A stretch of 31,242 nucleotides of DNA from a virus: IMG/VR virus record IMGVR_UViG_3300035698_015968. One strand, given 5' to 3'. Below are positions 1 to 31,242 of the stretch, one piece after another; position 1 is the stretch's first letter; the number at the start of each line of letters is the position of its first letter. The notes beneath the pieces were generated by a model. The model searched no databases. It was not told the origin of the DNA and saw nothing but the letters and a program-made list of their open reading frames with translations. The translations under genes and the position numbers were made by a program.

Positions 1-124
1 CTGTTTCAATAGGAGCACCACAAGAAGCAGCTCCGTTTAATCAGCCGCAAGAGGCAGGCCCTATTGGTCAGCCGCAAGAGGCAGGTCCTATTGGTCAGCC
101 GCAAGAGGCAGGTCCTATTGGTCA
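1..124. repeat. Terminal overlap: 1-124 is identical to 31119-31242 (contig circularisation)
   Basis: Base-by-base comparison of both ends. The overlap includes 38 bp of unique sequence (ctgtttcaataggagcaccacaagaagcagctccgttt) before the tandem repeat, so it is not only repeat slippage. Confidence 0.95.
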
Positions 125-1118
125 GCCGCAAGAGGCAGGTCCTATTGGTCAGCCGCAAGAGGCAGGTCCTATTGGTCAACAACAAGACATTGAAAAGCCA
201 GGGGTTACTTTTAAAAAAGAAGGACTTGTTTTTAAATTGCCCAAGAGTTATTCTCCTGAGGAAATGGAAGATCGATTTAGAAAAGCTCCTGGATTAAAAT
301 CAAATTCTTTAGAAAAACAACTTGATTTAATATCGCAAAATACTCTTATTTCTCCAGAGCAAAAAAAAATAATTATAAAAAATGGAAGAGATAAGATAGC
401 TAGACTAGATGTTAAACAAGACAAAATAAATGCAAAAAACAAACCGTATATTGTTGGCATTAATGGTAAATATGACGCTACTAAAAGTTCTGGAATGCGA
501 CTTAATAGGTATCTTGAACTTTTAAAGAATGGAAACTTACAAAAGCCTGAAGAGGTAGCTCTGTATGATTTTCTTGCTAAGAAAATAGGTTATGACCTTA
601 GAGGGACTGTTCTAAACGCTGATAGTCAAGAAGCTCAAAAATTAACTAAAGATTTTTTAAAAGATTTACCAAAGCTATTTAGTGGAAAAATTACAGATAG
701 GCAGGCGTCAGATTATTTAAAAACTGTTCCATCTCTTATGCAATCACATAATGGAAAGATAAGAGTAGCAACAAACTTACTTTTAATGGACGAAATAACT
801 AAATTAAAATATTTTGAAAAAGAAAAAATTATGGCTGAGTATCAAGGTGTTGAGCCAGCAAATATAGAAACTTTAATAAATAGTAGAACAGATGAACGTG
901 TTGGGGCTATTGCTAAAGAATTTGTATCAGGCCATCGGAAGTCTATGCTTGAATTAAAACATGAAAAAAATTCTAAAAATTCTAAAACGGCTTTTGCTGA
1001 TTTAACAGAAGCAGAAAAAGATCAACTAAGTTCATCTGGTCCTGATTTAACAGAAAAAAAAGATAAGCAATTTAGAGGTCTTTTTGAAACGCTTTTAAGC
1101 AGAAAAGCCAAAAGCTAA
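3..1118 (+). CDS. 3' part of a ~500-aa ORF that begins at 30734 and crosses the contig junction. Repeat-containing hypothetical protein, possibly an internal virion/ejection protein by position.
   Basis: Frame 3 is open from base 3 to TAA at 1116-1118 and is in phase with the open frame 30734-31242 once the 31118-bp unit is applied. The track ORF 237-1118 is only its TTG-truncated tail. It lies just after the nozzle-like gene cluster. Confidence 0.6.
   Translation, partial: VSIGAPQEAAPFNQPQEAGPIGQPQEAGPIGQPQEAGPIGQPQEAGPIGQPQEAGPIGQQQDIEKPGVTFKKEGLVFKLPKSYSPEEMEDRFRKAPGLKSNSLEKQLDLISQNTLISPEQKKIIIKNGRDKIARLDVKQDKINAKNKPYIVGINGKYDATKSSGMRLNRYLELLKNGNLQKPEEVALYDFLAKKIGYDLRGTVLNADSQEAQKLTKDFLKDLPKLFSGKITDRQASDYLKTVPSLMQSHNGKIRVATNLLLMDEITKLKYFEKEKIMAEYQGVEPANIETLINSRTDERVGAIAKEFVSGHRKSMLELKHEKNSKNSKTAFADLTEAEKDQLSSSGPDLTEKKDKQFRGLFETLLSRKAKS
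39..173 (+). repeat. 5 x 27-bp in-frame tandem repeat encoding (N/G)QPQEAGPI
   Basis: ggtcagccgcaagaggcaggtcctatt occurs four times perfectly (66-173). It is preceded by a variant copy, aatcagccgcaagaggcaggccctatt (39-65). Confidence 0.95.
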
Positions 1119-1360
1119 GTATTCGGTCTCTGTAAAAGGTTCATAAAAAGATCAATCAAATATTTTATAAATCCTGCTAGTAAATCAATGGATTTTATAA
1201 ATCCCGCTAATAAATTAATGGATAGTGTTATTAATACTATTATCAACAACACTATCCAAACAAAAGGATGAAAAAGTAATAGCCATAAGTTTCCCCAGTC
1301 TAAAATCCTAAACATATATAGAAAATTTTTTAATATCATAATAATTCCACCTAACATCAT
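1115..1360 (-). CDS. Small (81 aa) membrane protein with two hydrophobic segments; holin-type or superinfection-exclusion-type candidate
   Basis: Reading from the double ATG at 1360/1357 gives MMLGGIIMILKNFLYMF...LWLLLFHPFVWIVLLIIVLITLSI. The TTG-start extension in the track (to 1438) runs through a GC-rich palindromic island and is probably non-coding. Confidence 0.5.
   Translation of the reverse strand: MMLGGIIMILKNFLYMFRILDWGNLWLLLFHPFVWIVLLIIVLITLSINLLAGFIKSIDLLAGFIKYLIDLFMNLLQRPNT
1162..1221. repeat. 2 x 30-bp tandem repeat (27/30 identical) inside the membrane-protein gene
   Basis: attttataaatcctgctagtaaatcaatgg / attttataaatcccgctaataaattaatgg. On the minus strand these encode INLLAGFIKS / IDLLAGFIKY. 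Confidence 0.85.
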
Positions 1361-1368
1361 AATAATTT

Positions 1369-1400
1369 CGTCGCTCTCTCGTCGCGGCGACGTCGCGTCT
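1369..1400. other. GC-rich palindromic island between the RHH gene and the membrane-protein gene
   Basis: cgtcgctctctcgtcgcggcgacgtcgcgtct. It contains the palindrome cgtcgc-g-gcgacg (1380-1392) and a perfect 10-bp palindrome gcgacgtcgc (1387-1396) in otherwise AT-rich DNA. Confidence 0.6.
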
Positions 1401-1525
1401 AAATAAATATCTAATTTCTTCCTACCCACCAAAACCAAAATAAATAAACTGAAAAAAGTAAAACTCTTACTATTGCTTCATTCTCTGGATCCAAGCACAT
1501 TCTCCTTTTTATATAACGTTGTTTA

Positions 1526-1684
1526 TTATTTTGAGTTGATAACTTTTTGTTCTTTTAAATCCGTATCATCTTTATACATTTTTTCTACAATCGCACACAT
1601 TACCCATCCTTGTACGGTAATTCCTCTTGAGAGTGCTAAAAATTTAACTTTTCTATGAAGAGATGCATCGATTCTTATCGTCAT
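1526..1684 (-). CDS. 52-aa ribbon-helix-helix (Arc/CopG/ParG-like) DNA-binding protein, not in the ORF track because it is under 60 aa
   Basis: Manual reverse-complement translation gives MTIRIDASLHRKVKFLALSRGITVQGWVMCAIVEKMYKDDTDLKEQKVINSK*. It shows an N-terminal beta-strand, helix, G-turn, helix pattern. It lies downstream of a TTGACA-17-TATACT promoter. The SD is weak. Confidence 0.55.
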   Translation of the reverse strand: MTIRIDASLHRKVKFLALSRGITVQGWVMCAIVEKMYKDDTDLKEQKVINSK

Positions 1685-1717
1685 TGTTTTTCTATTGGTG
1701 AACATCTTTGTATTTCC

Positions 1718-1747
1718 TTGATAAATAAACTATTGCTTATCTATAAT
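1718..1747 (+). promoter_or_regulatory. Candidate rightward promoter for the fibre operon, face-to-face with the leftward promoter
   Basis: TTGATA (1718-1723), 18-nt spacer, TATAAT (1742-1747). Chance matches are common in AT-rich DNA. Confidence 0.35.
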
Positions 1748-1748
1748 A

Positions 1749-1777
1749 AGTATATCACATTGCCATCAAGCTGTCAA
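1749..1777 (-). promoter_or_regulatory. Sigma70-type promoter reading leftward into the RHH/membrane-protein cassette
   Basis: Minus strand: TTGACA (1777-1772), 17-nt spacer, TATACT (1754-1749). Confidence 0.5.
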
Positions 1778-1790
1778 GATGACTTGAATG
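1766..1790. promoter_or_regulatory. Operator-like module TCAAG-N3-TCAAG-N4-CTTGA-ATG (copy 1)
   Basis: caTCAAGctgTCAAGatgaCTTGAatg. The same architecture recurs at 12638-12662. The second TCAAG overlaps the -35 of the leftward promoter. Confidence 0.45.
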
Positions 1791-1874
1791 CAATTAATAC
1801 TTCTAGGTTGTCGTTTTGTTTTTTTGATAGAGTAAATATATAAGATTTTTCACTCCTCTATAAAAAGGAAGTAG

Positions 1875-3491
1875 ATGGCAACAAAACAGATTACACCGCA
1901 ATTTGTCTATGGTATGGGTGATAACTTAATTCAAGTAGCTCCTCGTCCTATTATTGCTAACAGAGCACCAACTACAAGAGATCAGGCTGAGCTTGGAAGT
2001 ACTTGGGTTGATACTTCTGCGGGTGTATTTTATGGACTTGCGTCTATTACAGCAAATTCATCTAACTGGACAACGACTCCGGCAGCTGGTGCTACAGTTC
2101 TCGCATCACTTGATATTACTGGCGCTGGAACTTCACTAGATGTACAAAATGCTGCAGGAACTACTGTAATATCAAGTGGAACTATTAATTTTGATAATGC
2201 TGCAGGAACTACCACAATTAGTGGAGCTCTTACTGTGTCAGGCGTGACTACTCTTACAGGTGATTTAGATTTATCATCAGGGGCCTTAATTGATCTTACT
2301 TCTACTCTTGATGCGGCGCCTTCTATTTATTTGCATGCCAATGGCGGAACATCAGAACAAATTCGTATACGTTCAGACCAAGGTACTGGAGTTAGCTCTA
2401 TTCTTATTGATTCTGATGTCGGTGGGTTAACCTTACAGTCTGGTTTAGCGTCTGATGATGCTATTAATATTAATTCAACTGCTGGCGGTATAGATATTGA
2501 TGCTGCGCTACAAGTTAATCTTGCCTCATCAGAAGCAGCATCAGATGCAATATTAATTACAGCTTCTAATGCTGCTGGTGGTATAGATATGATTGCTGGA
2601 ACTGCTGGTTTAGATGTATTGGCTACCGGTGGTGATATAGTTATGGCATGTGATGGCTTTGACTTTGATTGCAGTGCTAATGGATTTGATGTTCTTGCAA
2701 CTGCTGGAGCGTTTTCTATTGATGGAGCATTAGCTTCTAATATTACGACTACTGGCGCAGGAATAGATTTAACTCTTTCATCTGTTCTTGGATCTGTATT
2801 AGTTAGCTCTACTGAAGATGCTGCTCTGGCTATTAAACTTCATGCTAATGGTGGAGTAAGTGAAACGATACAATTGCACAGTGACCAAGGAACTGGTGTT
2901 GATTCTATAAATCTTTTATCAGATGTTGGTGGAATAACACTTACAGCAACGGGAATGGCTTCTGAAGATGCAATTAATTTTGTTGCAACGGCAGGTGGTA
3001 TTGATATGGATGCTGCACTACAAGTTAATATTGCTTCATCTGAAGCTGCAGACGATGCAATTGTTATTAATGCAAGCAATGCGGCTGGTGGTATAGATAT
3101 TACGAGTGGTGGCGGAGATATTGATATTAGTGGTGGTGATATAACGATTAGTGGCCCTAATAATACCGCAGAAACAATTCTTATTACAACCAACAATGGG
3201 ACGTCTGAAACCATTGTAATCGAGGCAAATCAAGGTACAGGAAAAGATGCTATTGATATTTCATCTGCTGGTGGTGTAGAAGTAACTACAGGTGCATTAG
3301 CTGCAACTACTGGACTTCATCTTGTGCAAAGTGCACAAACTGCAGCTATACAAGTTGGTACTGGAGCTCCATCTCATAATGCACCAAAAGGGAGCCTATA
3401 TTTACGTACCGACGGCTCCAGTACGAGTACAAGGGGGTATATTGCCACAGATGCGGTGGGTACATGGACAGCAATCACAACCGCGGCGTGA
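1875..3491 (+). CDS. Tail fibre/spike-like structural protein (538 aa), Gly/Thr/Ala/Ser-rich with beta-helix-like repeats
   Basis: SD AAGGAAG upstream. There is an internal 169-aa duplication. The composition and repeat texture (GGIDIDAALQVN..., SDQGTGV...) are fibre-like. The N-terminal motif RAPTTRD...STWVDTS is shared with ORF 8549. Confidence 0.6.
   Translation: MATKQITPQFVYGMGDNLIQVAPRPIIANRAPTTRDQAELGSTWVDTSAGVFYGLASITANSSNWTTTPAAGATVLASLDITGAGTSLDVQNAAGTTVISSGTINFDNAAGTTTISGALTVSGVTTLTGDLDLSSGALIDLTSTLDAAPSIYLHANGGTSEQIRIRSDQGTGVSSILIDSDVGGLTLQSGLASDDAININSTAGGIDIDAALQVNLASSEAASDAILITASNAAGGIDMIAGTAGLDVLATGGDIVMACDGFDFDCSANGFDVLATAGAFSIDGALASNITTTGAGIDLTLSSVLGSVLVSSTEDAALAIKLHANGGVSETIQLHSDQGTGVDSINLLSDVGGITLTATGMASEDAINFVATAGGIDMDAALQVNIASSEAADDAIVINASNAAGGIDITSGGGDIDISGGDITISGPNNTAETILITTNNGTSETIVIEANQGTGKDAIDISSAGGVEVTTGALAATTGLHLVQSAQTAAIQVGTGAPSHNAPKGSLYLRTDGSSTSTRGYIATDAVGTWTAITTAA
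2331..3098 (+). repeat. Diverged intragenic duplication: 2331-2591 versus 2838-3098 (offset 507 bp = 169 aa)
   Basis: LHANGGTSEQIRIRSDQGTGVSSILIDSDVGGLTL...AGGIDM aligns with LHANGGVSETIQLHSDQGTGVDSINLLSDVGGITL...AGGIDI. Confidence 0.85.
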
Positions 3492-3555
3492 TCTGAGGTC
3501 TTTGACATATTAAGAAAGGTGAAGCATTCTATAGTTAAAATTAATTAATTATAGG

Positions 3556-4398
3556 ATGCTTATGCCATTTATAAAAAAATGTTGTCATTGTAAAGAGGAA
3601 TTTAGTAGCAAGTCTTCATTTGCAAAGCTCTGTTCACGAGAGTGCCATAATAAGCATATGTATATTGAACGCATTGAGAAAAAATGTAATCAGTGTAATA
3701 AGAAATACTTTGTAGAGGTTCGTCTAAAATCATCAAAATTTTGTTCTAACAAATGTAGTAGTGATTTTATAAAGCAACCAAAGTTAAAAAAAAAGTGCCT
3801 ATTATGCGGGACTATTTATTTAGTAGCTAAAAGGCATTATGAAAGTTCTAAGTTTTGCTCAAATTCATGTAAATGCTCTACAGCTGGTAAGAAATCATCT
3901 CAAAAGATACATAAAAAATGGGAGCAAGAAACCCATCAAGAGACAAAAGCTATAATGAAAGAAGCATTTGAAAAGTTCTTTGATAAAACGGATGGATGTT
4001 GGGAATGGAAAGGAGGTAAAAAAAATTATGGCAAGAAGTTGCCTTATGGGTCTTTCTCTTTTAGAGATAAAAGAACTAATATAGCCCATCGCATAAGTTA
4101 TGAATTATATCGAGGACTAATTCCAAAAGGATTAATAGTAATGCATATCTGTGATAACCCTCCATGTGTTAATCCTGATCATCTTAAGGTGGGTACTTAT
4201 CTTGACAATCAAAAAGATAAAGTGCGAAAGGGAAGGGGCAAAGTTGAAAAACTTTCTGAAGAAGAGGTTAAAGAGATACTATCTAGGTTTAAGATGGGAG
4301 TAAAGGGCTGTAGAATAGCTAAAGACTTTGGAATCAGTCAGAGTACTGCTTCATCAATAAAACATAGAAAATTATGGGCCTGGGTTAAAATAGATTAA
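3556..4398 (+). CDS. Free-standing HNH (HNH_3-type) homing endonuclease with three N-terminal Cys4 zinc modules and a C-terminal HTH
   Basis: HICDNPPCVNPDHLKVGT...N motif. There are three repeats of KKCxxC-x(12-15)-(F/L)CSxxC. The C-terminal GCRIAKDFGISQSTASSI is HTH-like. Confidence 0.75.
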   Translation: MLMPFIKKCCHCKEEFSSKSSFAKLCSRECHNKHMYIERIEKKCNQCNKKYFVEVRLKSSKFCSNKCSSDFIKQPKLKKKCLLCGTIYLVAKRHYESSKFCSNSCKCSTAGKKSSQKIHKKWEQETHQETKAIMKEAFEKFFDKTDGCWEWKGGKKNYGKKLPYGSFSFRDKRTNIAHRISYELYRGLIPKGLIVMHICDNPPCVNPDHLKVGTYLDNQKDKVRKGRGKVEKLSEEEVKEILSRFKMGVKGCRIAKDFGISQSTASSIKHRKLWAWVKID

Positions 4399-4492
4399 TT
4401 GAGGAAATTTATACATAGTTTTTGTATGCTTTCTATAGAAATAAAGAGAATATTTTAATGAATTCAGCTTTATAAAAAAAGAAAGAAGAGTA

Positions 4493-4828
4493 ATGCCAAC
4501 AACAAAAAGGATTATTCCGCTTGCGCTAAAATCATTTGATACAACTTCATTGTCAGCAAGCTTCCAGGTAGTAGATGCAGTAGGATTTATATACCCTGTT
4601 TCTATTTTAAAATTTATTAATGAATCTGATACCGATGGGACTGTTAGTTTTGATGGTATTACAAGTCATGACTTTGTCTTATCAGATAGTCAGACAGAGA
4701 TTAATTTTTCTGCTCTTCTTGGGTCTACTGCTCGTGGAGCTCAAATTGCTAAAAAAACAAAGATATATATTAAAGGCTCTATGGGTACAGGACTCTTTTA
4801 TGTAGTAGCATATACCCAATTACCATAG
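4493..4828 (+). CDS. Hypothetical structural-module protein (111 aa), paralogue of 4839-5177
   Basis: Shared pattern ...SFDG..(S/D)H..L......(T)(K/R)IY(I/V)K......G.FYV.A with the next ORF. It lies within the fibre cluster. Confidence 0.6.
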   Translation: MPTTKRIIPLALKSFDTTSLSASFQVVDAVGFIYPVSILKFINESDTDGTVSFDGITSHDFVLSDSQTEINFSALLGSTARGAQIAKKTKIYIKGSMGTGLFYVVAYTQLP

Positions 4829-4838
4829 GAGAGTAGAA

Positions 4839-5177
4839 ATGAGTTTATCAATTCGTCTCGTCCCAGAGACAGTTAAAGAGTTAGCTTTTGGGTCTATTGG
4901 TGCTGGTTATGCGGGAGTAGGGACTGCATTTGATAAACCTATTCGCCTCATTATTTTTCAGAACTTAACAGATGTTTCCGTTATGATTTCGTTTGACGGA
5001 GTTGATGATCATATACCTTTAGTTACGAGTGGCTACCTAGTTCTTGATATAACGGCTAATAAGACGATAGCTAATGGTTTCTATATTGCTGAAGGAACAC
5101 GTATATATGTAAAACAACTTGCTGGGGCTGCAGGCTCTGGTAGTTTTTATGTATCAGCATTCGGAGGTGCATCATGA
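4839..5177 (+). CDS. Hypothetical structural-module protein (112 aa), paralogue of 4493-4828
   Basis: SD GGAGAG upstream. ATGA overlap with the following fibre gene suggests translational coupling. Confidence 0.6.
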   Translation: MSLSIRLVPETVKELAFGSIGAGYAGVGTAFDKPIRLIIFQNLTDVSVMISFDGVDDHIPLVTSGYLVLDITANKTIANGFYIAEGTRIYVKQLAGAAGSGSFYVSAFGGAS

Positions 5178-6904
5178 GCCAAATAGGAAGTACTGCAGCT
5201 GGTGGCGGAGGTGGCGCTGTAAATAGTGTTACGGGTGGAACTGGTATCAATACGAGTGGAACTGCAGCTGATCCAGTTGTTAATCTTGATGTTCCTATCA
5301 TCATTTCTCATGGTGGAACTAATGCTATTACAATGGCAACAACATATGGTGTTAACTATTTTGATGGAACTAGTATAGTTACGACGGCTGTTGGTAATGC
5401 CGGTGAGGTACTAACATCCGGAGGAATTGGTGTCGCTCCTACGTTTCAAGCTGGTGGATCCACAATAGATATTACTGGTGATAGTGGTGGTGCCCTAACG
5501 GGAACATCATTTACCTTTACTGGTGGAACTACAGGTATTACTTTTGCTGGAGCAGGAACAACTGAAACACTTACAGGTACTCTTGTAGTTGCTAATGGCG
5601 GAACCGGAGCTACTGCGTTAACACAATACAATGTATTGATAGGTAACAATGTTTCTGCTATTACAACAGTAGCTCCTTCTGCAACCAGTGGTGTTCCTTT
5701 GATTTCACAAGGCGCAGCAGCTGATCCAGCATTTGGAACAGCAGTAGTTGCGGGTGGTGGATCTGGACGAACCACAGCAACAGCATATGCAGTAATTTGT
5801 GGTGGAACTACAACAACAGCAGCACATCAGTCAATAGCATCTGTAGGTACATCTGGTCAGCTATTAACCTCTAATGGTGCTGGTGCTCTTCCAACATTTC
5901 AGACTGCTGGGTCAGCTTCTATTTCTATAACGGGTGATAGTGGTGGGGCTTTAGTTGCCTCTGCATTTACCTTTACTGGTGGAACTACGGGACTTACTTT
6001 TGCTGGTGCCGGAACAACTGAAACGATTACAGGAACTCTTGTAGTTGCTAATGGTGGTACTGGTCTTACTTCATTCACGCAGGGTGATATAATTTATTCT
6101 TCAGCAGCAAACACATTGAGTGCACTTGCTAAGAATGCTTCTTCGACTCGTTATCTTTCTAATACCGGAGCATCTAATAATCCTGCATGGGCTCAGATTG
6201 CACTAGCAACAGGTGTTAGTGGAACTCTTCCAGTTGCCAATGGTGGTACGAGCTCTACTTCGTTAACACAATATAATGTATTAATTGGTAATAATACTTC
6301 TGCTATTGCAACAGTAGCTCCTTCTGCAACAAGTGGTGTTCCTTTGATTTCACAAGGCGCAGCAGTCAATCCAGCATTTGGCACCGCTGTAGTTGCAGGT
6401 GGTGGATCTGGACGAACTACAGCAACAGCATATGCAGTAATTTGTGGTGGAACTACAACAACGGCAGCGCATCAATCAATTGCATCTGTTGGTACGAGCG
6501 GACAAATATTAACCTCTAATGGAGCTGGCGCTCTTCCAACGTTTCAAGCAGCTGGTGGTGGTGGTGGTGGACTTACCTGGGCAGTTACAACGGTTAATGC
6601 GACATTGGTTGTTGCAAATGGCTATATAGCTAATAAAGCAGGTCTTTTGACAATGACATTGCCATCTACAGCTGCTATTGGAGATATAATTGAGTTAACT
6701 AATATCAATACTGCTGTGGGGTGGAGAATTGCACAGAATGCTCTACAAGCAATACGATTTGGTAGTTCACTTACAACAATAGGAGTTGGTGGGTACCTAG
6801 AAGCTACTGCACTGGGCGACTCAGTAAGAATGGTCTGCACAGTCTCTGGAACATCTACTCGGTGGCTTATATTGTCTAGTTTAGGAAACATAACCATCGT
6901 ATAA
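5174..6904 (+). CDS. Tail fibre protein (576 aa) with large internal repeats and a distinct C-terminal domain
   Basis: SD GGAGGTG upstream. Repeated modules ITGDSGGAL..FTFTGGTTG.TFAGAGTTE..TGTLVVANGGTG and VG(T)SGQ.LTSNGAGALPTFQ. The N-proximal VNSVTGGTGINTSGTAADPVVNLD module is shared with ORF 8549. Confidence 0.75.
   Translation: MSQIGSTAAGGGGGAVNSVTGGTGINTSGTAADPVVNLDVPIIISHGGTNAITMATTYGVNYFDGTSIVTTAVGNAGEVLTSGGIGVAPTFQAGGSTIDITGDSGGALTGTSFTFTGGTTGITFAGAGTTETLTGTLVVANGGTGATALTQYNVLIGNNVSAITTVAPSATSGVPLISQGAAADPAFGTAVVAGGGSGRTTATAYAVICGGTTTTAAHQSIASVGTSGQLLTSNGAGALPTFQTAGSASISITGDSGGALVASAFTFTGGTTGLTFAGAGTTETITGTLVVANGGTGLTSFTQGDIIYSSAANTLSALAKNASSTRYLSNTGASNNPAWAQIALATGVSGTLPVANGGTSSTSLTQYNVLIGNNTSAIATVAPSATSGVPLISQGAAVNPAFGTAVVAGGGSGRTTATAYAVICGGTTTTAAHQSIASVGTSGQILTSNGAGALPTFQAAGGGGGGLTWAVTTVNATLVVANGYIANKAGLLTMTLPSTAAIGDIIELTNINTAVGWRIAQNALQAIRFGSSLTTIGVGGYLEATALGDSVRMVCTVSGTSTRWLILSSLGNITIV
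5621..6547 (+). repeat. Near-identical ~280-bp intragenic direct repeats (5621-5902 and 6266-6547); a second pair at 5471-5608 / 5927-6073
   Basis: By eye roughly 85-90% identical, with perfect runs of over 30-40 bp (for example acagcaacagcatatgcagtaatttgtggtggaactacaacaac). Confidence 0.9.
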
Positions 6905-9975: not shown

Positions 9976-10986
9976 TTAAATAAAGTTTATCTTTTTAGAT
10001 ATATTCTCTTCGTCACTAGTCTTATCATATGCCATAACCATTGTGTTGTTTCTGTGACCAGTTACTTGCATGATTTGTGAGTCGCTTGCTCCTTGATTGC
10101 GAACAAGTGTTACCCAGGTGGCACGTAGAACATGAGGAGTTACTTTAATTTTAATGTTAGCTCTCTCTCCTGCTTTTTTAAATGCATAATTAAGCTGGAA
10201 TCGTGTTACCATTTTTCCGGTTCTTGTAATAAAAACAAAAGGTGAGTCTTTTCGTATATCAATTGTTTCTGTTATATACATTTTAAGTTCTTCCATAAAA
10301 GACAATGGAAATGTAATGGGTATTTCACGAAATGTTCCGCATGACTTTGACTGTCTATAGCGAATAATATTTTTTCCCCAATCTATTTGAGAAAGTTTAA
10401 TGCTAATGACTTCTGTTATTCTTTTGGCCCCATGAAATGCTGATCGAGCTATCAATGAGTCTCTTGTATTAATATCTGACAACTCAGAAATGAACTTATA
10501 CCATTCTGCTAAGGTTAAAGCATTGGTTGCACATTTTTCTCGTACTTTATAAAACGTTGGATTTGACCTGAGCCTTGATGGTTCTACTTTTCTGACCCAT
10601 CCTTGGCTTATTCGGGATAAGTAGGATGTGAGTGATATATATACTGCTGCATGCAATTGTCGAGTACCTTCTGACCATTCTTTAATGCTTTTTATGTAAT
10701 CAAGAACTAGCTCATGAGGGATAAGTCTAAAGTGTCCCACTGTAAAAGGATTTCCTAAAGCATCTTTCTCAGGGATGATATTACGTCGTATCATATCGGT
10801 TACATAATAAGAATAGTTTCGTCTCGTTTCAGGAGAAAGATTCTTTAGCCAATTATGCAGTACTGATTTAATAGAAGAGTTCTCAAGCTTTTCGATAAAG
10901 GCATAAGAATTGTGCTTAAACAAATCTTGTGATGCTAAGGAATGTTCTGATGGATTATATTTATTTAAAATGGGAATATCCTGCAT
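9976..10986 (-). CDS. int: Tyrosine recombinase / phage integrase
   Basis: Catalytic-domain pattern: GAKRITEV (Arg), HVLRAT (H-x-x-R), GH, and the MAYDK tyrosine near the C-terminus. The N-terminal SAM-like region contains RRNYSYYV. Confidence 0.85.
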   Translation of the reverse strand: MQDIPILNKYNPSEHSLASQDLFKHNSYAFIEKLENSSIKSVLHNWLKNLSPETRRNYSYYVTDMIRRNIIPEKDALGNPFTVGHFRLIPHELVLDYIKSIKEWSEGTRQLHAAVYISLTSYLSRISQGWVRKVEPSRLRSNPTFYKVREKCATNALTLAEWYKFISELSDINTRDSLIARSAFHGAKRITEVISIKLSQIDWGKNIIRYRQSKSCGTFREIPITFPLSFMEELKMYITETIDIRKDSPFVFITRTGKMVTRFQLNYAFKKAGERANIKIKVTPHVLRATWVTLVRNQGASDSQIMQVTGHRNNTMVMAYDKTSDEENISKKINFI

Positions 10987-11362: not shown

Positions 11363-11677
11363 ATGAAATATATATTAAAAGCTTTGTTTGTATTGGCATC
11401 GTCTTCATCGCTATTTATTTGTTCAATACCACCAATATCAATGTTCACTCCTTATTATGATCCGGAAGAGAACTCTTTGCCGATAGATGAAAGAAAAGTA
11501 AATTATAATTCTTTAACGCAATACTATACTCATCCCACTGTAGAGGATATTAAAGATCTTAAGAAAAAGCATGAAGATAACAAAAAGAATTTGGCTGATG
11601 ACATAAGTTCTATTCTTAATATAGTTAAAATAAAAGATGTAAATATAGCTGATAAAAAAAAAGAGAAAAAAAAATAA
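11363..11677 (+). CDS. Small secreted or membrane-anchored protein (104 aa) with an N-terminal signal peptide; moron-like
   Basis: MKYILKALFVLASSSSLFICSIPP has a hydrophobic leader with a Cys. The C-terminus is Lys-rich. It is an isolated + strand gene between two - strand genes and is followed by a strong terminator. Confidence 0.6.
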   Translation: MKYILKALFVLASSSSLFICSIPPISMFTPYYDPEENSLPIDERKVNYNSLTQYYTHPTVEDIKDLKKKHEDNKKNLADDISSILNIVKIKDVNIADKKKEKKK

Positions 11678-11773: not shown

Positions 11774-12577
11774 CTAACGACCTTCTCTGAGTTTTTTTAT
11801 CTCACGTATTCTTCTTACAGAAACCATATATTTATCTTTTGGCATATCAGCAAGAGATTGAATTTTTAGTCCTTCTAGTACCATTTCACAAATGTCAGTA
11901 TAATCACCGAGCTCATATTCTAACTCTTCTAACTGTTCTTTGGTAATAGTTTCTGAACTTTGTTTTCTTGGATTATATTTTGTGTTAAGTGCTACCCCTT
12001 TTGACACTGTCTTTCTCATGTCATGTACTGCTAGTTCACCATCATCATCTTCATTAGCTGATACAACACCAATAATTGAAGCATATGAATATCTTCTAAG
12101 GTAAGTGATGTAAGAGCCAAGAGATTGTATGTCAGGCTTATGTGGTACAATTCTCATGCGACTTTCTATCCACTGACCTGATGCATGACCCAAGATAGTA
12201 TGAAGAAAGTTTTGTCCTTCTTTGTTTGGCATAATCTGTTGTATAACACTCAGCTCATTCTTTGTTAAAGCACTGCGAGAAGCTTTAACAACTTCAGCAA
12301 GACCAGCATATTTGCTTTTAAAGTAAGGATTCTCTGAGTTTAATCCTGCTGATCTCATTTCTGATTGAGCTTTAGCTAATGCACTAAATAAATCTTTTAA
12401 ATCATCAGATCTTGTTTTTTGAATGTCTTTTGGTGATTCAAGCTTTTGAGAAAGAGAACGAATTTCATTTAATATATAACTTAGCTTTTCAGATATTTTT
12501 TTATCATTACTCTCTTGTAGTGCTTCACTCATATGGCGATCATGACGATCTTGAATAGTTTTTTTCATACTTTCCAT
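11774..12577 (-). CDS. erf: ERF-family single-strand annealing recombinase
   Basis: NPYFKSKYAGLAEVVKASRSALTKNELSVIQ resembles the conserved ERF core (N-P-[FY]-F-K-S-K-Y-A-x-L). The size is typical for the family. Confidence 0.7.
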   Translation of the reverse strand: MESMKKTIQDRHDRHMSEALQESNDKKISEKLSYILNEIRSLSQKLESPKDIQKTRSDDLKDLFSALAKAQSEMRSAGLNSENPYFKSKYAGLAEVVKASRSALTKNELSVIQQIMPNKEGQNFLHTILGHASGQWIESRMRIVPHKPDIQSLGSYITYLRRYSYASIIGVVSANEDDDGELAVHDMRKTVSKGVALNTKYNPRKQSSETITKEQLEELEYELGDYTDICEMVLEGLKIQSLADMPKDKYMVSVRRIREIKKLREGR

Positions 12578-12620
12578 GATGACTTCTTTCTTTTAATAAT
12601 GCTGTATTTCTTTCTCTATA

Positions 12621-12649
12621 AATATAGCATATTGAAGTCAAGAAGTCAA
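12621..12649 (-). promoter_or_regulatory. Sigma70-type promoter for the ERF gene
   Basis: Minus strand: TTGACT (12649-12644), 17-nt spacer, TATATT (12626-12621). It is about 45 nt upstream of the ERF ATG. Confidence 0.5.
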
Positions 12650-12662
12650 GCTGTCTTGAATG
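12638..12662. promoter_or_regulatory. Operator-like module TCAAG-N3-TCAAG-N4-CTTGA-ATG (copy 2)
   Basis: agTCAAGaagTCAAGctgtCTTGAatg has the same spacing and polarity as 1766-1790. The second TCAAG again overlaps the -35. Confidence 0.45.
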
Positions 12663-12843
12663 TTGTATGTACGCACAAAAACACTATATAAAAGAAAAAA
12701 GTCATTACAAAAACGACAATTAATGATTTTTATTGAAATTTATTTTGACGGAATCGCCAGAGAAAGGTAGTTTTTATCTTATATTAATTTTTTAGCTTGC
12801 AGGCGAGAGAATTTTATATAAAAGGTAAAAACTTTAAACAAAT

Positions 12844-12949
12844 AACCAAAGGAGGCTATATATAAAAAAACCAAAGGAGGCTTTTTAGAAAAAACAACAT
12901 AACCAAGGAGGCTATATTTAGAAACTCACACAAAACCCAAGAAGGATCT
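12844..12949. repeat. Iteron-like direct repeats AACCAAAGGAGGCT (12844-12857, 12869-12882), AACCAAGGAGGCT (12901-12913) and a degenerate AACCCAAGAAGGATCT (12934-12949); candidate origin or operator array
   Basis: Read directly. Each unit embeds a strong SD-like AAGGAGG but has no start codon at a usable distance. The array lies upstream of the replication-type genes and is flanked by very AT-rich DNA. Confidence 0.6.
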
Positions 12950-12987
12950 TTATAACAATGTACCCCGAAAGGAAACAGTTCTGAACC

Positions 12988-13299
12988 ATGAAAAGTAAAC
13001 AAAAAACAATTACTAAAAAACCATGCAACCCACTAAGGAAACAAATGCTCTTAAATAAACGCCCTCTTTTGCCTATCATAGACAACCGGCTCCCTATGTT
13101 TGCTCATAGGAAGGAAGGTACAATGCAGATGAACAAGTTCATCTCTGGGGCGAACAAACCCCATTCTTATATACAAACGAAAATTTCAAAGTTAAGTAAA
13201 ACTGGTACAATGAATACGAAAGAACATCAAAAAATTGCTATACGAAACATAGGACCAGTTATTACAAAGAAAACTAATACAATTACTAGTTATCATTAA
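12988..13299 (+). CDS. Doubtful ORF: basic, low-complexity 103-aa product (an internal start with SD AGGAAGG near 13123 is possible)
   Basis: Open frame only. The + strand is extremely A-rich and there are no recognisable motifs. Confidence 0.25.
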   Translation: MKSKQKTITKKPCNPLRKQMLLNKRPLLPIIDNRLPMFAHRKEGTMQMNKFISGANKPHSYIQTKISKLSKTGTMNTKEHQKIAIRNIGPVITKKTNTITSYH

Positions 13300-16847: not shown

Positions 16848-17216
16848 TTAATTTTTGGCAACGAATTCCTCTTCTTCTTTTATTTCAAAGTAGGCTTTTG
16901 TGATAGCTCTTTTTTGTATATCTTTGAGACTATCTAATACTTCTTCCAGCTCAAATTCATTGATATTCTTAGCAAATATTTTTAGTGCTCTTGGGGTTAA
17001 AGAATCTTTTGAAGTAATGTCATTGTTTAGGATGAATAGTCTTAATTCATAAAGAACATCATATTTATCTCCACCAACTCTGCATAAAATTTCATCGTTA
17101 TTTCCAGCATCTCTTTCTTCTTCGATTAATTCGCAATATTCTTCTACTCCTCGTTCGATGATATAATTGATCATTTCTTCATTTGTCTTGGTCAATTCTT
17201 TGTTTATATTTTTCAT
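16848..17216 (-). CDS. Acidic hypothetical protein (122 aa; 29 D+E versus 18 K+R)
   Basis: SD AGAAGGA upstream. It is driven by a perfect consensus promoter and is oriented opposite to the packaging genes. Confidence 0.65.
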   Translation of the reverse strand: MKNINKELTKTNEEMINYIIERGVEEYCELIEEERDAGNNDEILCRVGGDKYDVLYELRLFILNNDITSKDSLTPRALKIFAKNINEFELEEVLDSLKDIQKRAITKAYFEIKEEEEFVAKN

Positions 17217-17261: not shown

Positions 17262-17290
17262 ATTATAGCATAGTTTGGTAAGGTTGTCAA
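17262..17290 (-). promoter_or_regulatory. Perfect consensus sigma70 promoter (TTGACA-17-TATAAT) reading leftward
   Basis: The reverse complement of 17262-17290 is TTGACAaccttaccaaactatgcTATAAT. Confidence 0.65.
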
Positions 17291-29357: not shown

Positions 29358-29867
29358 CTATTGCTTTAAATACTCAAGAATCACATAGGTAGTATCAAAG
29401 GCTGTTCTGTCTATTCCTGTTGTTATGATTACATTTGTTACATCAACACTTAGTTCTATATTATTTGCCGCTGTAGATGAAGCATAGGGTAGTGGTAGAT
29501 AGACAAGGCCTGTCGTATCACTTGTTGTTCCGTAGATTCTTGTAAAGGTAAATGTAGAATCTGGTGCAATTCCATGTGCTATTGAGGTAGTTCCTGTATT
29601 AGGAAGTGATCCAAAATTAATAACTTTTCTAAACACTTGTCGTTGTGTTGGAGTTTGGGGAGTTAATGAGGTTAATGATGGATTGCTAAAAAATACTTGC
29701 CCATTAATAAACTCAGTAAGCTCATACATTCCTGTATCTTTAGCATTTAATGCCAAGATTATACTATTAACATTTCTATAAAGATTTCTCGTTAGCTCTC
29801 GTTGAGATTCGTTGCCAAATAAGTATGTTGTTGGTAAAAAGAAGCCATAATCTGATTGATTTGCCAT
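29358..29867 (-). CDS. Structural/fibre-like hypothetical protein (169 aa) encoded antisense to the structural operon
   Basis: SD AAAGGTG upstream. Beta-rich sequence with the patterns FGSLPNTGTTSIAHGI..., LPLPY..., and IELSVD..VIITTG.DRT.....YVILEYLKQ. Confidence 0.55.
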   Translation of the reverse strand: MANQSDYGFFLPTTYLFGNESQRELTRNLYRNVNSIILALNAKDTGMYELTEFINGQVFFSNPSLTSLTPQTPTQRQVFRKVINFGSLPNTGTTSIAHGIAPDSTFTFTRIYGTTSDTTGLVYLPLPYASSTAANNIELSVDVTNVIITTGIDRTAFDTTYVILEYLKQ

Positions 29868-30733: not shown

Positions 30734-31242
30734 ATGGCTATACCAGTCATTCAAGAATCATCTTTCGGTGGAAATATTGGGTCTGCACTTGGCGGTGGAC
30801 TTGGTCAAGCATTACAATATTTGGCACAGGATCGTATTAGAGAAAAAATGGAGCAAAAACAAATAGGGAAACGAGGTCAAGCGCTTCAAGCACTTAAGCT
30901 TCTCAGTCCTCAATCATTTGGCAATCTTAATGAAGAACAAATGGGACAGTTTGCTCAACTTCCTGAACAATCTTTTAATATTGCTTTAAAGCAGTTGTTA
31001 CAACAGCCATTATTTAATGCAGGAGGAATATCTCCTGAAGATGCCCAAATGCAAAAATTAGCTGAGCAGAAAATTATAAATGATATTCTCTATCCCAATA
31101 ATTCTGTGCCACAAGAACCTGTTTCAATAGGAGCACCACAAGAAGCAGCTCCGTTTAATCAGCCGCAAGAGGCAGGCCCTATTGGTCAGCCGCAAGAGGC
31201 AGGTCCTATTGGTCAGCCGCAAGAGGCAGGTCCTATTGGTCA
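30734..31242 (+). CDS. 5' part of the junction-spanning ORF (continues at base 3)
   Basis: ATG at 30734 with SD AAGGA upstream. The frame is open to the window end and the N-terminus is MAIPVIQESSFGGNIGSALGGGLGQ... It is not in the track because it has no in-window stop. Confidence 0.6.
   Translation, partial: MAIPVIQESSFGGNIGSALGGGLGQALQYLAQDRIREKMEQKQIGKRGQALQALKLLSPQSFGNLNEEQMGQFAQLPEQSFNIALKQLLQQPLFNAGGISPEDAQMQKLAEQKIINDILYPNNSVPQEPVSIGAPQEAAPFNQPQEAGPIGQPQEAGPIGQPQEAGPIG

Follow-up and report, generated by a model that had tools for sequence, protein, structure and literature searches.

The 31,242-nucleotide virus sequence IMGVR_UViG_3300035698_015968 of IMG/VR (called the window here, at its full length) carries a small cassette of genes that is oriented against its structural genes, between the gene for a large virion protein and the first tail-fibre gene. 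The minus strand of positions 1115-1790 holds three open reading frames (ORFs), which are, in leftward order, a gene for a ribbon-helix-helix (RHH) DNA-binding protein (1526..1705), a mini-ORF (1411..1494) and a hydrophobic ORF (1115..1360). A leftward operon layout with an RHH gene and a membrane ORF, antisense to the structural genes, had been described in an original prediction made from the letters of this DNA alone, and these features do lie where it placed them; it counted only two ORFs, however, and overlooked the conserved mini-ORF of 27 amino acids (aa). It had also dismissed two plus-strand ORFs of the same region (1473-1658 and 1655-1843) as artefacts, and this judgement holds: neither has a significant family match (E 0.15-0.27 only), both are antisense to a gene with 65 homologues, and one is truncated in the related contig L001 (related loci carry L numbers, protein clusters P numbers).

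The RHH gene has a predicted product of 59 aa (MFTNRKTMTIRIDASLHRKVKFLALSRGITVQGWVMCAIVEKMYKDDTDLKEQKVINSK). The original prediction had started it at ATG 1684, as an ORF of 52 aa (1526-1684), but ATG 1705 is the likely start and ATG 1684 the less likely one, to judge from three properties of the sequence. A Shine-Dalgarno sequence (AAGGA, 1719-1715) lies 9 nt before the upstream codon; the nearest three clusters of homologues (P0002-4) are 60 aa long and keep the N-terminus MF(T/A)NR(K/Q)T; and a start at 1684 would remove the N-terminal basic residues, which align with the conserved KKRKQ arm of the family. That family was assembled by building an alignment from syntenic relatives and using it for a profile search, which gave 65 proteins with lengths of 44-74 aa; many of these lie on phage-sized contigs of 27-40 kb. 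Codon-position counts among close relatives favour the RHH frame weakly, and the assignment of the reading frame therefore rests on the family alignment. The signature of the family is an alternating hydrophobic/polar strand after the basic arm, followed by a G/N-x-S/T turn between the helices (KKRKQ-MAFDV...LAa.RNIS in the family, NRKT-MTIRID...LSRGIT in the window).

An RHH fold for the 59-aa protein, a part of the original prediction that stands, is well supported by structural modelling. With the 65-sequence alignment, AlphaFold2 returned a monomer model with a predicted local distance difference test score (pLDDT) of 89.8, in which an extended segment (residues 7-13) is followed by two helices (14-27 and 31-58). 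When this model was compared with the PDB by Foldseek, nearly all of the top ~42 matches were RHH proteins or RHH domains, including CopA_SO, Arc, PutA-RHH, CopG, FitA, NikA and AmrZ, and the best had target TM-scores (template modelling scores) of up to 0.92 and a root mean square deviation of ~1 A. A model from only 4 sequences gave one long helix with a pLDDT of 62; it was uninformative and was replaced by the 65-sequence model. A PDB profile search with a shallow alignment gave a zinc-finger match only, which was judged spurious.

Profile matches in Pfam, PHROG and the PDB are weak, yet all are of the RHH type (HicB, CopG, Arc-like, ParG and omega). The best Pfam matches are HicB and CopG_antitoxin, found in 7/12 and 6/12, respectively, of the family members examined; no Pfam RHH family reaches its gathering score with the window protein (HicB scores 20.8 against 21). 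The PDB profile matches (CopG-family regulators, ORF56, Arc, ParG and omega) have E values of 0.01-0.5. Many family members (P0005-P0065) bear the Joint Genome Institute (JGI) label "predicted HicB family RNase H-like nuclease", which is misleading because it rests on a match to no more of PF05534 than its RHH portion; these are proteins of 50-60 aa without a nuclease-like domain. Aligned by hhalign, the family is in register with Mnt over residues 8-46 (P=3.3e-4, probability 38%), and it also aligns with Arc (P=3.1e-3, probability 10%). The sequence comparisons do not support its membership of the Arc or Mnt families at the sequence level: the Pfam models of Arc and Mnt gave no match, and the PHROG "Arc-like repressor" reaches only E 1.2e-3. 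A tblastn search of the deposited phages with a consensus family member gave no match, so that no cultured relative with the RHH gene was found. A search for related loci with an RHH alignment of 4 sequences yielded none that could be confirmed. A second RHH gene is missing from the ORF lists for this region, and a profile search of the window gave no other match below E 7.9.

The mini-ORF (1411..1494, minus strand) encodes 27 aa from a conserved TTG codon ((M)DPENEAIVRVLLFSVYLFWFWWVGRN), or 29 aa from ATG 1500. The strongest Shine-Dalgarno sequence of the region (AAGGAG, 1507-1502) lies 7 nt before the TTG. It is the only open frame there and is conserved in L001-4 and L006/7. Three sub-lineages retain it, among which it varies by an in-frame 3-nt indel and by conservative changes in the acidic N-terminus; the core LFSV(Y/S)LFWFWW(V/I)GR is nearly invariant. 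The predicted product thus consists of an acidic N-terminus and a single Trp/Phe-rich hydrophobic helix. Homology between this peptide and the 79-aa protein that follows the RHH gene in L036/L040 was not detectable.

The hydrophobic ORF (1115..1360, minus strand) encodes 81 aa from ATG 1360, in a frame that remains open to TTG 1438 (107 aa). The ATG is the better start because the 107-aa extension crosses a GC-rich island with rare codons. The predicted protein has a weak first transmembrane segment (IIMMLGGIIMILKNFLYMF, Kyte-Doolittle ~2.0), a strong second one (~LWLLLFHPFVWIVLLIIVLITLSINLL, Kyte-Doolittle ~2.9) and a C-terminus in which the amphipathic repeat LLAGFIKSID occurs twice. When the 407-bp gap was simulated with matched composition, 1.1% of cases gave an ORF of 81 aa or more and 0.16% one of 104 aa or more; furthermore, the ORF holds tandem duplications of 21 bp and 30 bp, both of them in frame. 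On these sequence grounds it is probably real. The original prediction had the RHH gene followed by this ORF, as that of a two-transmembrane protein. The ORF itself was confirmed, but the mini-ORF lies between the two, and the 81-aa gene is, as far as sequence comparison goes, lineage-specific cargo and not a constant partner of the RHH gene: it is missing in L005-L007, and among the 5.8e9 and 1.8e9 proteins searched its product found only its own cluster (P0066). Neither this protein nor the mini-ORF product has a significant match in Pfam, PHROG, PADLOC or defence models.

Two further elements lie in this part of the cassette. The GC-rich island (1369..1400, minus strand) has ~72% GC within a region of 31% GC and contains GCGACG three times at 11-bp spacing, an array that is unique in the genome (0.02 expected by chance). 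It is found only in L001-4 and, in part, in L006/7, where homology ends at its edge, and a pattern scan of viral and metagenome collections found none. Its reading as the coding N-terminus of a 107-aa protein is disfavoured, given a GC content at third codon positions of 0.50 in the extension versus 0.17-0.27 in real genes, together with the rare codons; its reading as a terminator or RNA element was rejected for want of a significant fold (z +0.8). The island could be a protein-binding array or a recombination junction. The second element is a 40-nt quasi-palindrome inside the 81-aa ORF (1219..1258, minus strand), predicted to form an 18-bp RNA hairpin of -25.3 kcal/mol (z -5.7) that is followed by a U-rich tail (UUAAUUUAUU); it may partially terminate the leftward transcript or stabilise it, no clear terminator having been found for that transcript. 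Relative to the window, L003 and L004, this element is exactly reverse-complemented in L001/L002 (L001 ~1540-1580), which changes the peptide WIVLLIIVLITLSI to WIVLLILLSTTLSI and leaves the frame open. The 40-bp inversion looks like a template-switch inversion.

Upstream of the RHH gene, two promoters face each other, just as the original prediction had described them. Promoters were scored as matches to the 12 positions of the sigma-70 consensus, and both of these score 11/12: a leftward promoter TTGACA-17-TATACT (1749..1777, minus strand), which has an extended -10 TG at 1757-1756, and a rightward promoter TTGATA-18-TATAAT (1718..1747, plus strand). Sites of at least 11/12 number only three in the whole window on both strands, including this pair, and simulation gave a chance of ~2e-4 for one such site per strand within 169 bp of the same composition. 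Leftward transcripts are predicted to start near 1742, which leaves a 37-nt leader before the RHH ATG, and rightward transcripts near 1754, 121 nt before the ATG of the fibre gene. The -10 hexamers (1742-1747 and 1749-1754) are 1 bp apart, so that each predicted start lies inside the -10 of the other promoter. To judge from the footprints of RNA polymerase, two open complexes could not coexist at so close a spacing, and the leftward and rightward promoters would be unable to hold open complexes at the same time. The leftward promoter is present in 6/6 related loci (with TTGACT in L006/7, where the rightward -35 is weakened to TTAATA). Indeed, the promoter and intergenic region is nearly invariant in the 6 related contigs, with the RHH coding sequence differing by 7-19%. 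An exact-pattern scan with the invariant promoter stretch found none in viral, metagenome or genome collections.

The leader of the fibre gene (1754-1885, plus strand) folds better than shuffled sequences (z -2.55). Within it, UUGCCAUC (1760-1767) pairs with GAUGGCAA (1873-1880), which spans the fibre start codon; the relatives have UUGCUAUC, which preserves the pairing by means of a G-U pair. This pairing could mask translation of transcripts begun at the rightward promoter.

A candidate operator can be tentatively assigned, from its sequence and position, to the quasi-palindrome CTTAT-CTATA-ATAAG (1736..1750, both strands), which spans the rightward -10 and the leftward start and shares its centre with an outer inverted repeat, CTTGAT (1717-1722)/ATCAAG (1765-1770). 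The pattern CTTAT-N5-ATAAG has one chance copy, at 10607, and its own region is invariant in the relatives; the GAT(A/G)GCAAT repeats are further operator candidates in the window. A role of the RHH protein as a genome-wide regulator was considered and rejected, there being no second copy of the candidate operator near the early region. More distant loci provide a parallel. Leftward sigma-70-like promoters abut the RHH gene in L031, L012, L027, L024 and L034, and a locus-specific palindrome lies in the promoter spacer of L012 (TTGTGTACACAA), L034 (TTCGTACGAA) and L024 (AAGATCTT); in L031, AATGATCA occurs twice there. The palindromes of L012 and L034 are single-copy in their loci, and the motifs of L024 and L031 recur elsewhere. 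Loci with the same RHH beta-strand have related motifs: L012 and L030 share TTGTGTACACAA, and L027, L040, L043 and L045 have TGTTA/TAACA-based palindromes in common. These spacer motifs are candidate operators, and since they lie in the RHH gene's own promoter they suggest autoregulation; the pattern is the one to be expected if they are the operators.

The constancy of the RHH gene, and the inconstancy of what follows it, became apparent from comparison of related phages. A 724-aa structural protein was used as bait and retrieved 30 viral contigs at 38-52% identity, whose ORFs were then profile-searched. Wherever the junction between the large virion protein and the first fibre gene exists, an antisense RHH gene occupies the same slot, in ~15 uncultured lineages; 3 loci with a different gene order lack it, and the contexts of further RHH family members show the same arrangement. 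Hydrophobic ORFs lie directly after the RHH gene in 7/~15 lineages; hydrophobic cargo of this kind, with 1-2 helices and 27-81 aa, is found in the window group and in L006/7, L031, L027, L036/37/40-42 and L024/29. Small soluble ORFs take its place in L034 and L043/44 and an HNH endonuclease gene in L045, and L012, L030 and L022 have no cargo at all. Replacement is evident even among close relatives: L006/7 have lost or never had the 81-aa gene but share the RHH gene, mini-ORF and GC island with the window, and L005 diverges right after the RHH stop codon, where a different hydrophobic ORF begins. With cargo that varies in this way across the ~15 lineages, the RHH gene is the constant element and the membrane proteins are exchangeable cargo. 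The L045 endonuclease gene (2652-3239), directly after the RHH gene, is related to one in the window that is inserted between fibre genes and encodes an HNH endonuclease with a C-terminal helix-turn-helix domain (3556-4398, plus strand); homing endonucleases seem to use the same insertion-tolerant spots. In L009, a second RHH gene (3228-3434, minus strand) lies elsewhere in the genome and is followed by a 40-aa lipoprotein-like ORF (MKKLLMIALLLSIAGINSC..., 3096-3218, minus strand), so that the pattern of an RHH gene plus a small envelope protein recurs outside the fibre junction.

The slot has a well-known counterpart in phage P22. The window is a complete circular genome, and its matches to the P22 portal family (PF16510, E 5.7e-75) and to a tyrosine integrase (PF00589) show it to be that of a temperate P22-type podovirus. 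Its gene order at the junction is large virion protein (+), membrane ORF (-), mini-ORF (-), RHH (-), opposed promoters, fibre (+); that of P22 (NC_002371.2; X01916) is 7/20/16 (+), sieA (-), orf59a (-), mnt (-), Pmnt/Pant, arc-ant (+), 9 (+). Villafane et al. described the P22 slot as a highly variable, separately expressed "ant moron" (PMC2629481). As in that element, the cassette belongs to a phage with a P22-type portal and comes after the last large virion or ejection gene and ahead of the first gene for a fibre or spike. In both, an RHH repressor gene points leftward, opposite to the late operon, with a short ORF and then a gene for a membrane protein behind it on the same strand, and there are two overlapping, opposed promoters of which one would be occupied at a time. 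Of the marks of a moron, a promoter of its own is predicted for the cassette and the cargo is variable or missing, but the RHH gene itself is constant wherever the junction exists. The cassette also resembles the reduced ant morons of phages L, ST64T and ST104, which have an RHH repressor and 1-2 short ORFs without ant (PMC8022706, PMC2629481), versions with mnt and only one short gene of no known function being on record for L and ST64T (PMC8022706, PMC2629481). Those phages are close P22 relatives in enterobacteria with a recognisable mnt homologue, however, whereas the RHH family of the window is absent from deposited phages.

The original prediction had likened this region to P22 immI. In slot and order the likeness is closer than was claimed, but in the strict sense it fails. 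There is no ant (no ant-like ORF lies between 1705 and 1875, and to the right of the promoters comes the fibre gene), no arc and no evident sar RNA, an Rfam search of 900-2100 at E up to 1 having given no match save a chance one to a small nucleolar RNA. The P22 promoters are superimposed and divergent, whereas those of the window are convergent with adjacent -10 hexamers. Mnt has a C-terminal tetramerisation domain that the 59-aa protein lacks; P22 has a sieA-type promoter and an mnt terminator, neither of which is evident in the window; and SieA has 164 aa, unlike the unrelated membrane proteins of 27 and 81 aa seen here. A BLASTP comparison of the window's membrane ORF with P22 SieA gave E 0.11 over a hydrophobic stretch only, and the cytoplasmic SieA motif FnRYPnEAnnFNK is missing from it. 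With the autorepressors Arc, CopG and omega, the RHH protein shares a predicted strand-helix-helix order, a basic arm at the N-terminus and an R-(G/N)-I-(T/S)-type turn, although its second helix is ~12 residues longer; and just as O_arc lies inside P_ant in P22, the relatives' candidate operators are short palindromes or repeats inside the gene's own promoter.

The best way to account for these features is to regard the cassette as the counterpart, lacking arc and ant, of the mnt side (mnt/orf59a/sieA) of the P22 ant moron, a known arrangement in reduced and diverged form rather than a new kind of system. We give this whole picture a probability of about 0.55, and its central part, that the RHH protein is a repressor, a higher one. 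The strong leftward promoter (1777-1749), being of the sigma-70 extended -10 type, would drive an operon antisense to the virion genes that encodes an RHH repressor of the Arc/Mnt/CopG type, the 27-aa hydrophobic peptide and, in this lineage, also the 81-aa membrane protein. A dimer of the RHH protein, or a dimer of dimers, would most likely bind a symmetric site within 1715-1775 and repress its own leftward promoter; in this lineage the bound protein would also block the abutting rightward promoter before the fibre gene. In the lysogen the operon would be expressed; once lytic growth sets in, rightward transcription of the late genes would run over it. The small membrane proteins would most plausibly protect the lysogen by blocking the entry of DNA from related phages, as SieA and Imm do in P22 and T4.

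An exclusion function of the cargo is a tentative assignment by analogy, to which we give clearly less than even odds. Leavitt et al. found that SieA blocks DNA injection by interfering with ejection proteins that are encoded beside it (PMC10461980). The likeness of SieA, HK97 gp15 and T4 Imm to the membrane ORFs of the window is one of size, hydrophobicity and position, there being no sequence similarity. SieA of P22 and gp15 of HK97 are small inner-membrane proteins that are encoded beside virion or tail genes and expressed apart from the late operon, and Imm, with ~83 aa and two transmembrane segments, is of similar size to the 81-aa protein. No characterised exclusion protein known to us is as small as the 27-aa peptide.

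Several observations weigh against this picture or parts of it. The similarity to Mnt and Arc is at the superfamily level only, so that common descent with mnt is not demonstrated, and the membrane ORFs have neither homologues of known function nor similarity to SieA. The cargo is soluble, an HNH gene or absent in several lineages, which means that the slot must have some conserved role other than exclusion, if it has one. The best palindrome in the window has arms of only 5 bp, in AT-rich DNA. No good Shine-Dalgarno sequence precedes the 81-aa ORF, and the hairpin and U-rich tail inside it could end the transcript there. Finally, the original prediction had the rightward promoter drive the fibre operon; the match itself stands, but an equivalent (of at least 9/12) was not found in the majority of distant relatives. 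Since this promoter is restricted to close relatives, the control of fibre expression that it may exert could be peculiar to the lineage, or the match could be non-functional.

A different account of the RHH protein would make the gating of tail-fibre expression its conserved job and the cargo incidental. By promoter competition and a roadblock at the virion/fibre junction, the protein would keep a constitutive fibre promoter silent in the lysogen and govern the late read-through into the fibre genes, the membrane ORFs being passengers on a promoter that is active in the prophage. This would explain why L012, L030 and L022 have an RHH gene and no cargo, and hence must have a target other than the cargo, and it fits both the 11/12 rightward promoter that abuts the leftward one and the folding of the fibre leader onto its own start codon. 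In P22, the ant moron affects read-through from PLate into the tailspike gene, possibly via Mnt and Arc (PMC2629481). The limited conservation of the rightward promoter counts against such a role, however, as do the status of the operator as a candidate only and the position of the relatives' palindromes, which speaks for autoregulation because they lie in the promoter of the RHH gene itself. We consider fibre gating unlikely as the conserved job, and it overlaps with the ant-moron reading more than it excludes it. Doubt of another sort attaches to the 81-aa ORF: only the RHH gene, and perhaps the mini-ORF, might be real, with the 81-aa ORF a product of chance and the 1219-1258 hairpin a leftward terminator. 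The stability of that hairpin and the tail after it would suit a terminator, a T-rich strand readily translates into a sequence rich in Phe, Leu and Ile, and the ORF has no convincing Shine-Dalgarno sequence, no homologues outside its own lineage and no equivalent in L005-7. The rarity of frames of this length in the simulations and the two in-frame duplications argue otherwise, and the frame stays open in L001/2 despite the 40-bp inversion and a different 3' end and is called as a gene on 4 separate contigs. A chance origin is thus distinctly unlikely.

The names of the best Pfam matches, HicB and CopG_antitoxin, and the JGI label raise the question of a toxin-antitoxin or abortive-infection module, in which the RHH protein would be an antitoxin and autorepressor of the CopG/HicB type and the hydrophobic peptides membrane-depolarising toxins, freed as the labile antitoxin decays. 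The order, regulator first and then a small hydrophobic ORF, is that of antitoxin-toxin operons, and peptides of 27-48 aa with one transmembrane helix match type I toxins in size. Those Pfam matches, however, are below threshold and confined to the generic RHH part; no HicA, RelE, ParE, PIN or other toxin family adjoins the gene, and PADLOC found none; the downstream gene is soluble, an HNH gene or absent in half of the lineages; the 59-aa protein has no toxin-binding domain beyond its lengthened second helix; and its position mirrors a known repressor slot. Such a module appears very unlikely. Still less probable, in our view, is that the membrane ORFs are a holin or another lysis component whose timing is set by the RHH protein. 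No CI/Cro-type repressor, holin or endolysin is recognisable genome-wide by Pfam or PHROG, and products of 27 and 81 aa with 1-2 transmembrane segments would fit holins or antiholins. Nevertheless, these ORFs are antisense to the late operon with no muralytic gene adjacent, the extended -10 promoter suggests expression without phage factors, and relatives both near and far that retain the RHH gene lack the ORFs or have others in their place, a dispensability not expected of an essential lysis gene. The ant-moron reading, with a repressor that is kept and membrane cargo that is exchanged, remains the one we prefer.

A broader proposal is that the antisense RHH gene at the virion/fibre junction is an ancient core regulator of temperate podoviruses of the P22-portal type and not a passenger. 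This is speculative, and we consider it improbable as it stands. In such a scheme the protein may meter tail-fibre transcription by promoter occlusion or a roadblock, with its prophage-active promoter available to successive cargo such as exclusion peptides and HNH genes; the Mnt-Ant circuit of P22 may be a later addition to an older switch; and the 27-aa Trp-rich peptide may be a new, very small entry-blocking factor.

The rest of the genome agrees with its assignment to a temperate podovirus. The last 124 nt of the contig (31119-31242) equal the first 124 nt (1-124), which makes the genome circular with a true length of 31,118 bp. The contig break falls inside a 27-bp tandem repeat (PQEAGPIGQ, at least 5 copies; 45-180 and 31163-31242) of the 500-aa virion-module protein, the gene for which (30734..31118 joined to 1..1118, plus strand) contributes its 3' part at 1..1118; in L001, where the protein has 482 aa, the repeats occupy a shorter stretch and have degenerated further. 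This gene is convergent with the cassette, and the stop codons of the two overlap. The original prediction had called it an internal-protein gene. Its position suits that label, but a family search with its product gave no match; homologues of 467-1230 aa hold the same position in related loci, and by position the gene may correspond to the P22 ejection-protein genes. On the other side, the first tail-fibre/spike-like gene (538 aa; 1875..3491, plus strand) is the downstream neighbour and lies at the position of the P22 tailspike gene. Its product has no strong family match in Pfam or PHROG, and its N-terminus (..PIIANRAPT..) is kept in the first fibre gene of related loci. The minus strand also codes for the integrase and an Erf recombinase, and the plus strand for a replication protein, large terminase, portal, major capsid protein and several fibre-like proteins. 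An AT-rich gap of 410 bp (12577-12988), flanked by erf on one side and the rightward early genes on the other, is the likely early control region, and a search of the genome for transfer RNAs found none.

These phages are far removed from cultured ones. The portal has only ~25% identity to that of any deposited phage, and a megablast search of 1-6000 against deposited phages gave no match; the close relatives are environmental metagenome assemblies, including TARA ocean and JGI samples (TARA, JGI 3300022842 and ERZ272xxxxx for L001-L007). As to the host, the genome collection gave only 3 contigs (L046-L048, 8-35 kb) from metagenome-assembled genomes (MAGs), labelled Saccharibacteria, Thermoplasmatales and Promethearchaeota. 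Because these taxonomies are mutually inconsistent, L046-L048 are probably phage contigs that were mis-binned into the MAGs.

Three other ORFs of the window deserve mention. A very acidic 122-aa ORF (16848-17216, minus strand) lies antisense between the terminase and portal genes and is preceded by the only 12/12 sigma-70 promoter of the genome (TTGACA-17-TATAAT with an extended -10 TG; 17262-17290, minus strand). It has no match in Pfam, PHROG or PADLOC and is a candidate for a second moron. Within the block of virion genes, a 169-aa ORF without a family match (29358-29867, minus strand) is called in L004 too, and its apparent homologues lie on either strand (183 aa, minus, in L031; 175 aa, plus, in L027), which suggests an invertible or reshuffled structural gene. 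Finally, a 104-aa ORF (11363-11677, plus strand) with a signal-peptide or lipoprotein-like N-terminus (MKYILKALFVLASSSSLFIC...) lies beside the integrase gene, a typical position for a lysogenic-conversion or exclusion lipoprotein.

Descriptions of the ant moron slot have until now come mainly from enterobacterial relatives of P22, and the present comparison indicates that an RHH repressor also fills it in deeply diverged, uncultured and at least partly aquatic podoviruses that have no antirepressor. What is new is the breadth and constancy of the RHH slot in this uncultured clade, together with the tiny membrane peptides that ride on it. For annotation, the locus illustrates how RHH genes of 50-60 aa and ORFs of 27 aa are missed or mis-started by standard ORF tracks and how "HicB family nuclease" labels can mislead; the plus-strand ORFs at 1473-1843 should stay unannotated. 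The ~65 natural RHH variants with their candidate operator palindromes are a useful set for studies of RHH-DNA specificity, and the very small membrane peptides form a collection of candidate superinfection-exclusion factors. The finding also bears on the puzzle of the orphan mnt-like gene in phages L and ST64T, of which the phage L study asks whether it is a remnant or has some other function (PMC8022706). Conservation of the RHH gene across ~15 deeply diverged uncultured lineages argues against a decaying remnant and suggests, for these orphan genes as well, a function that has been kept.

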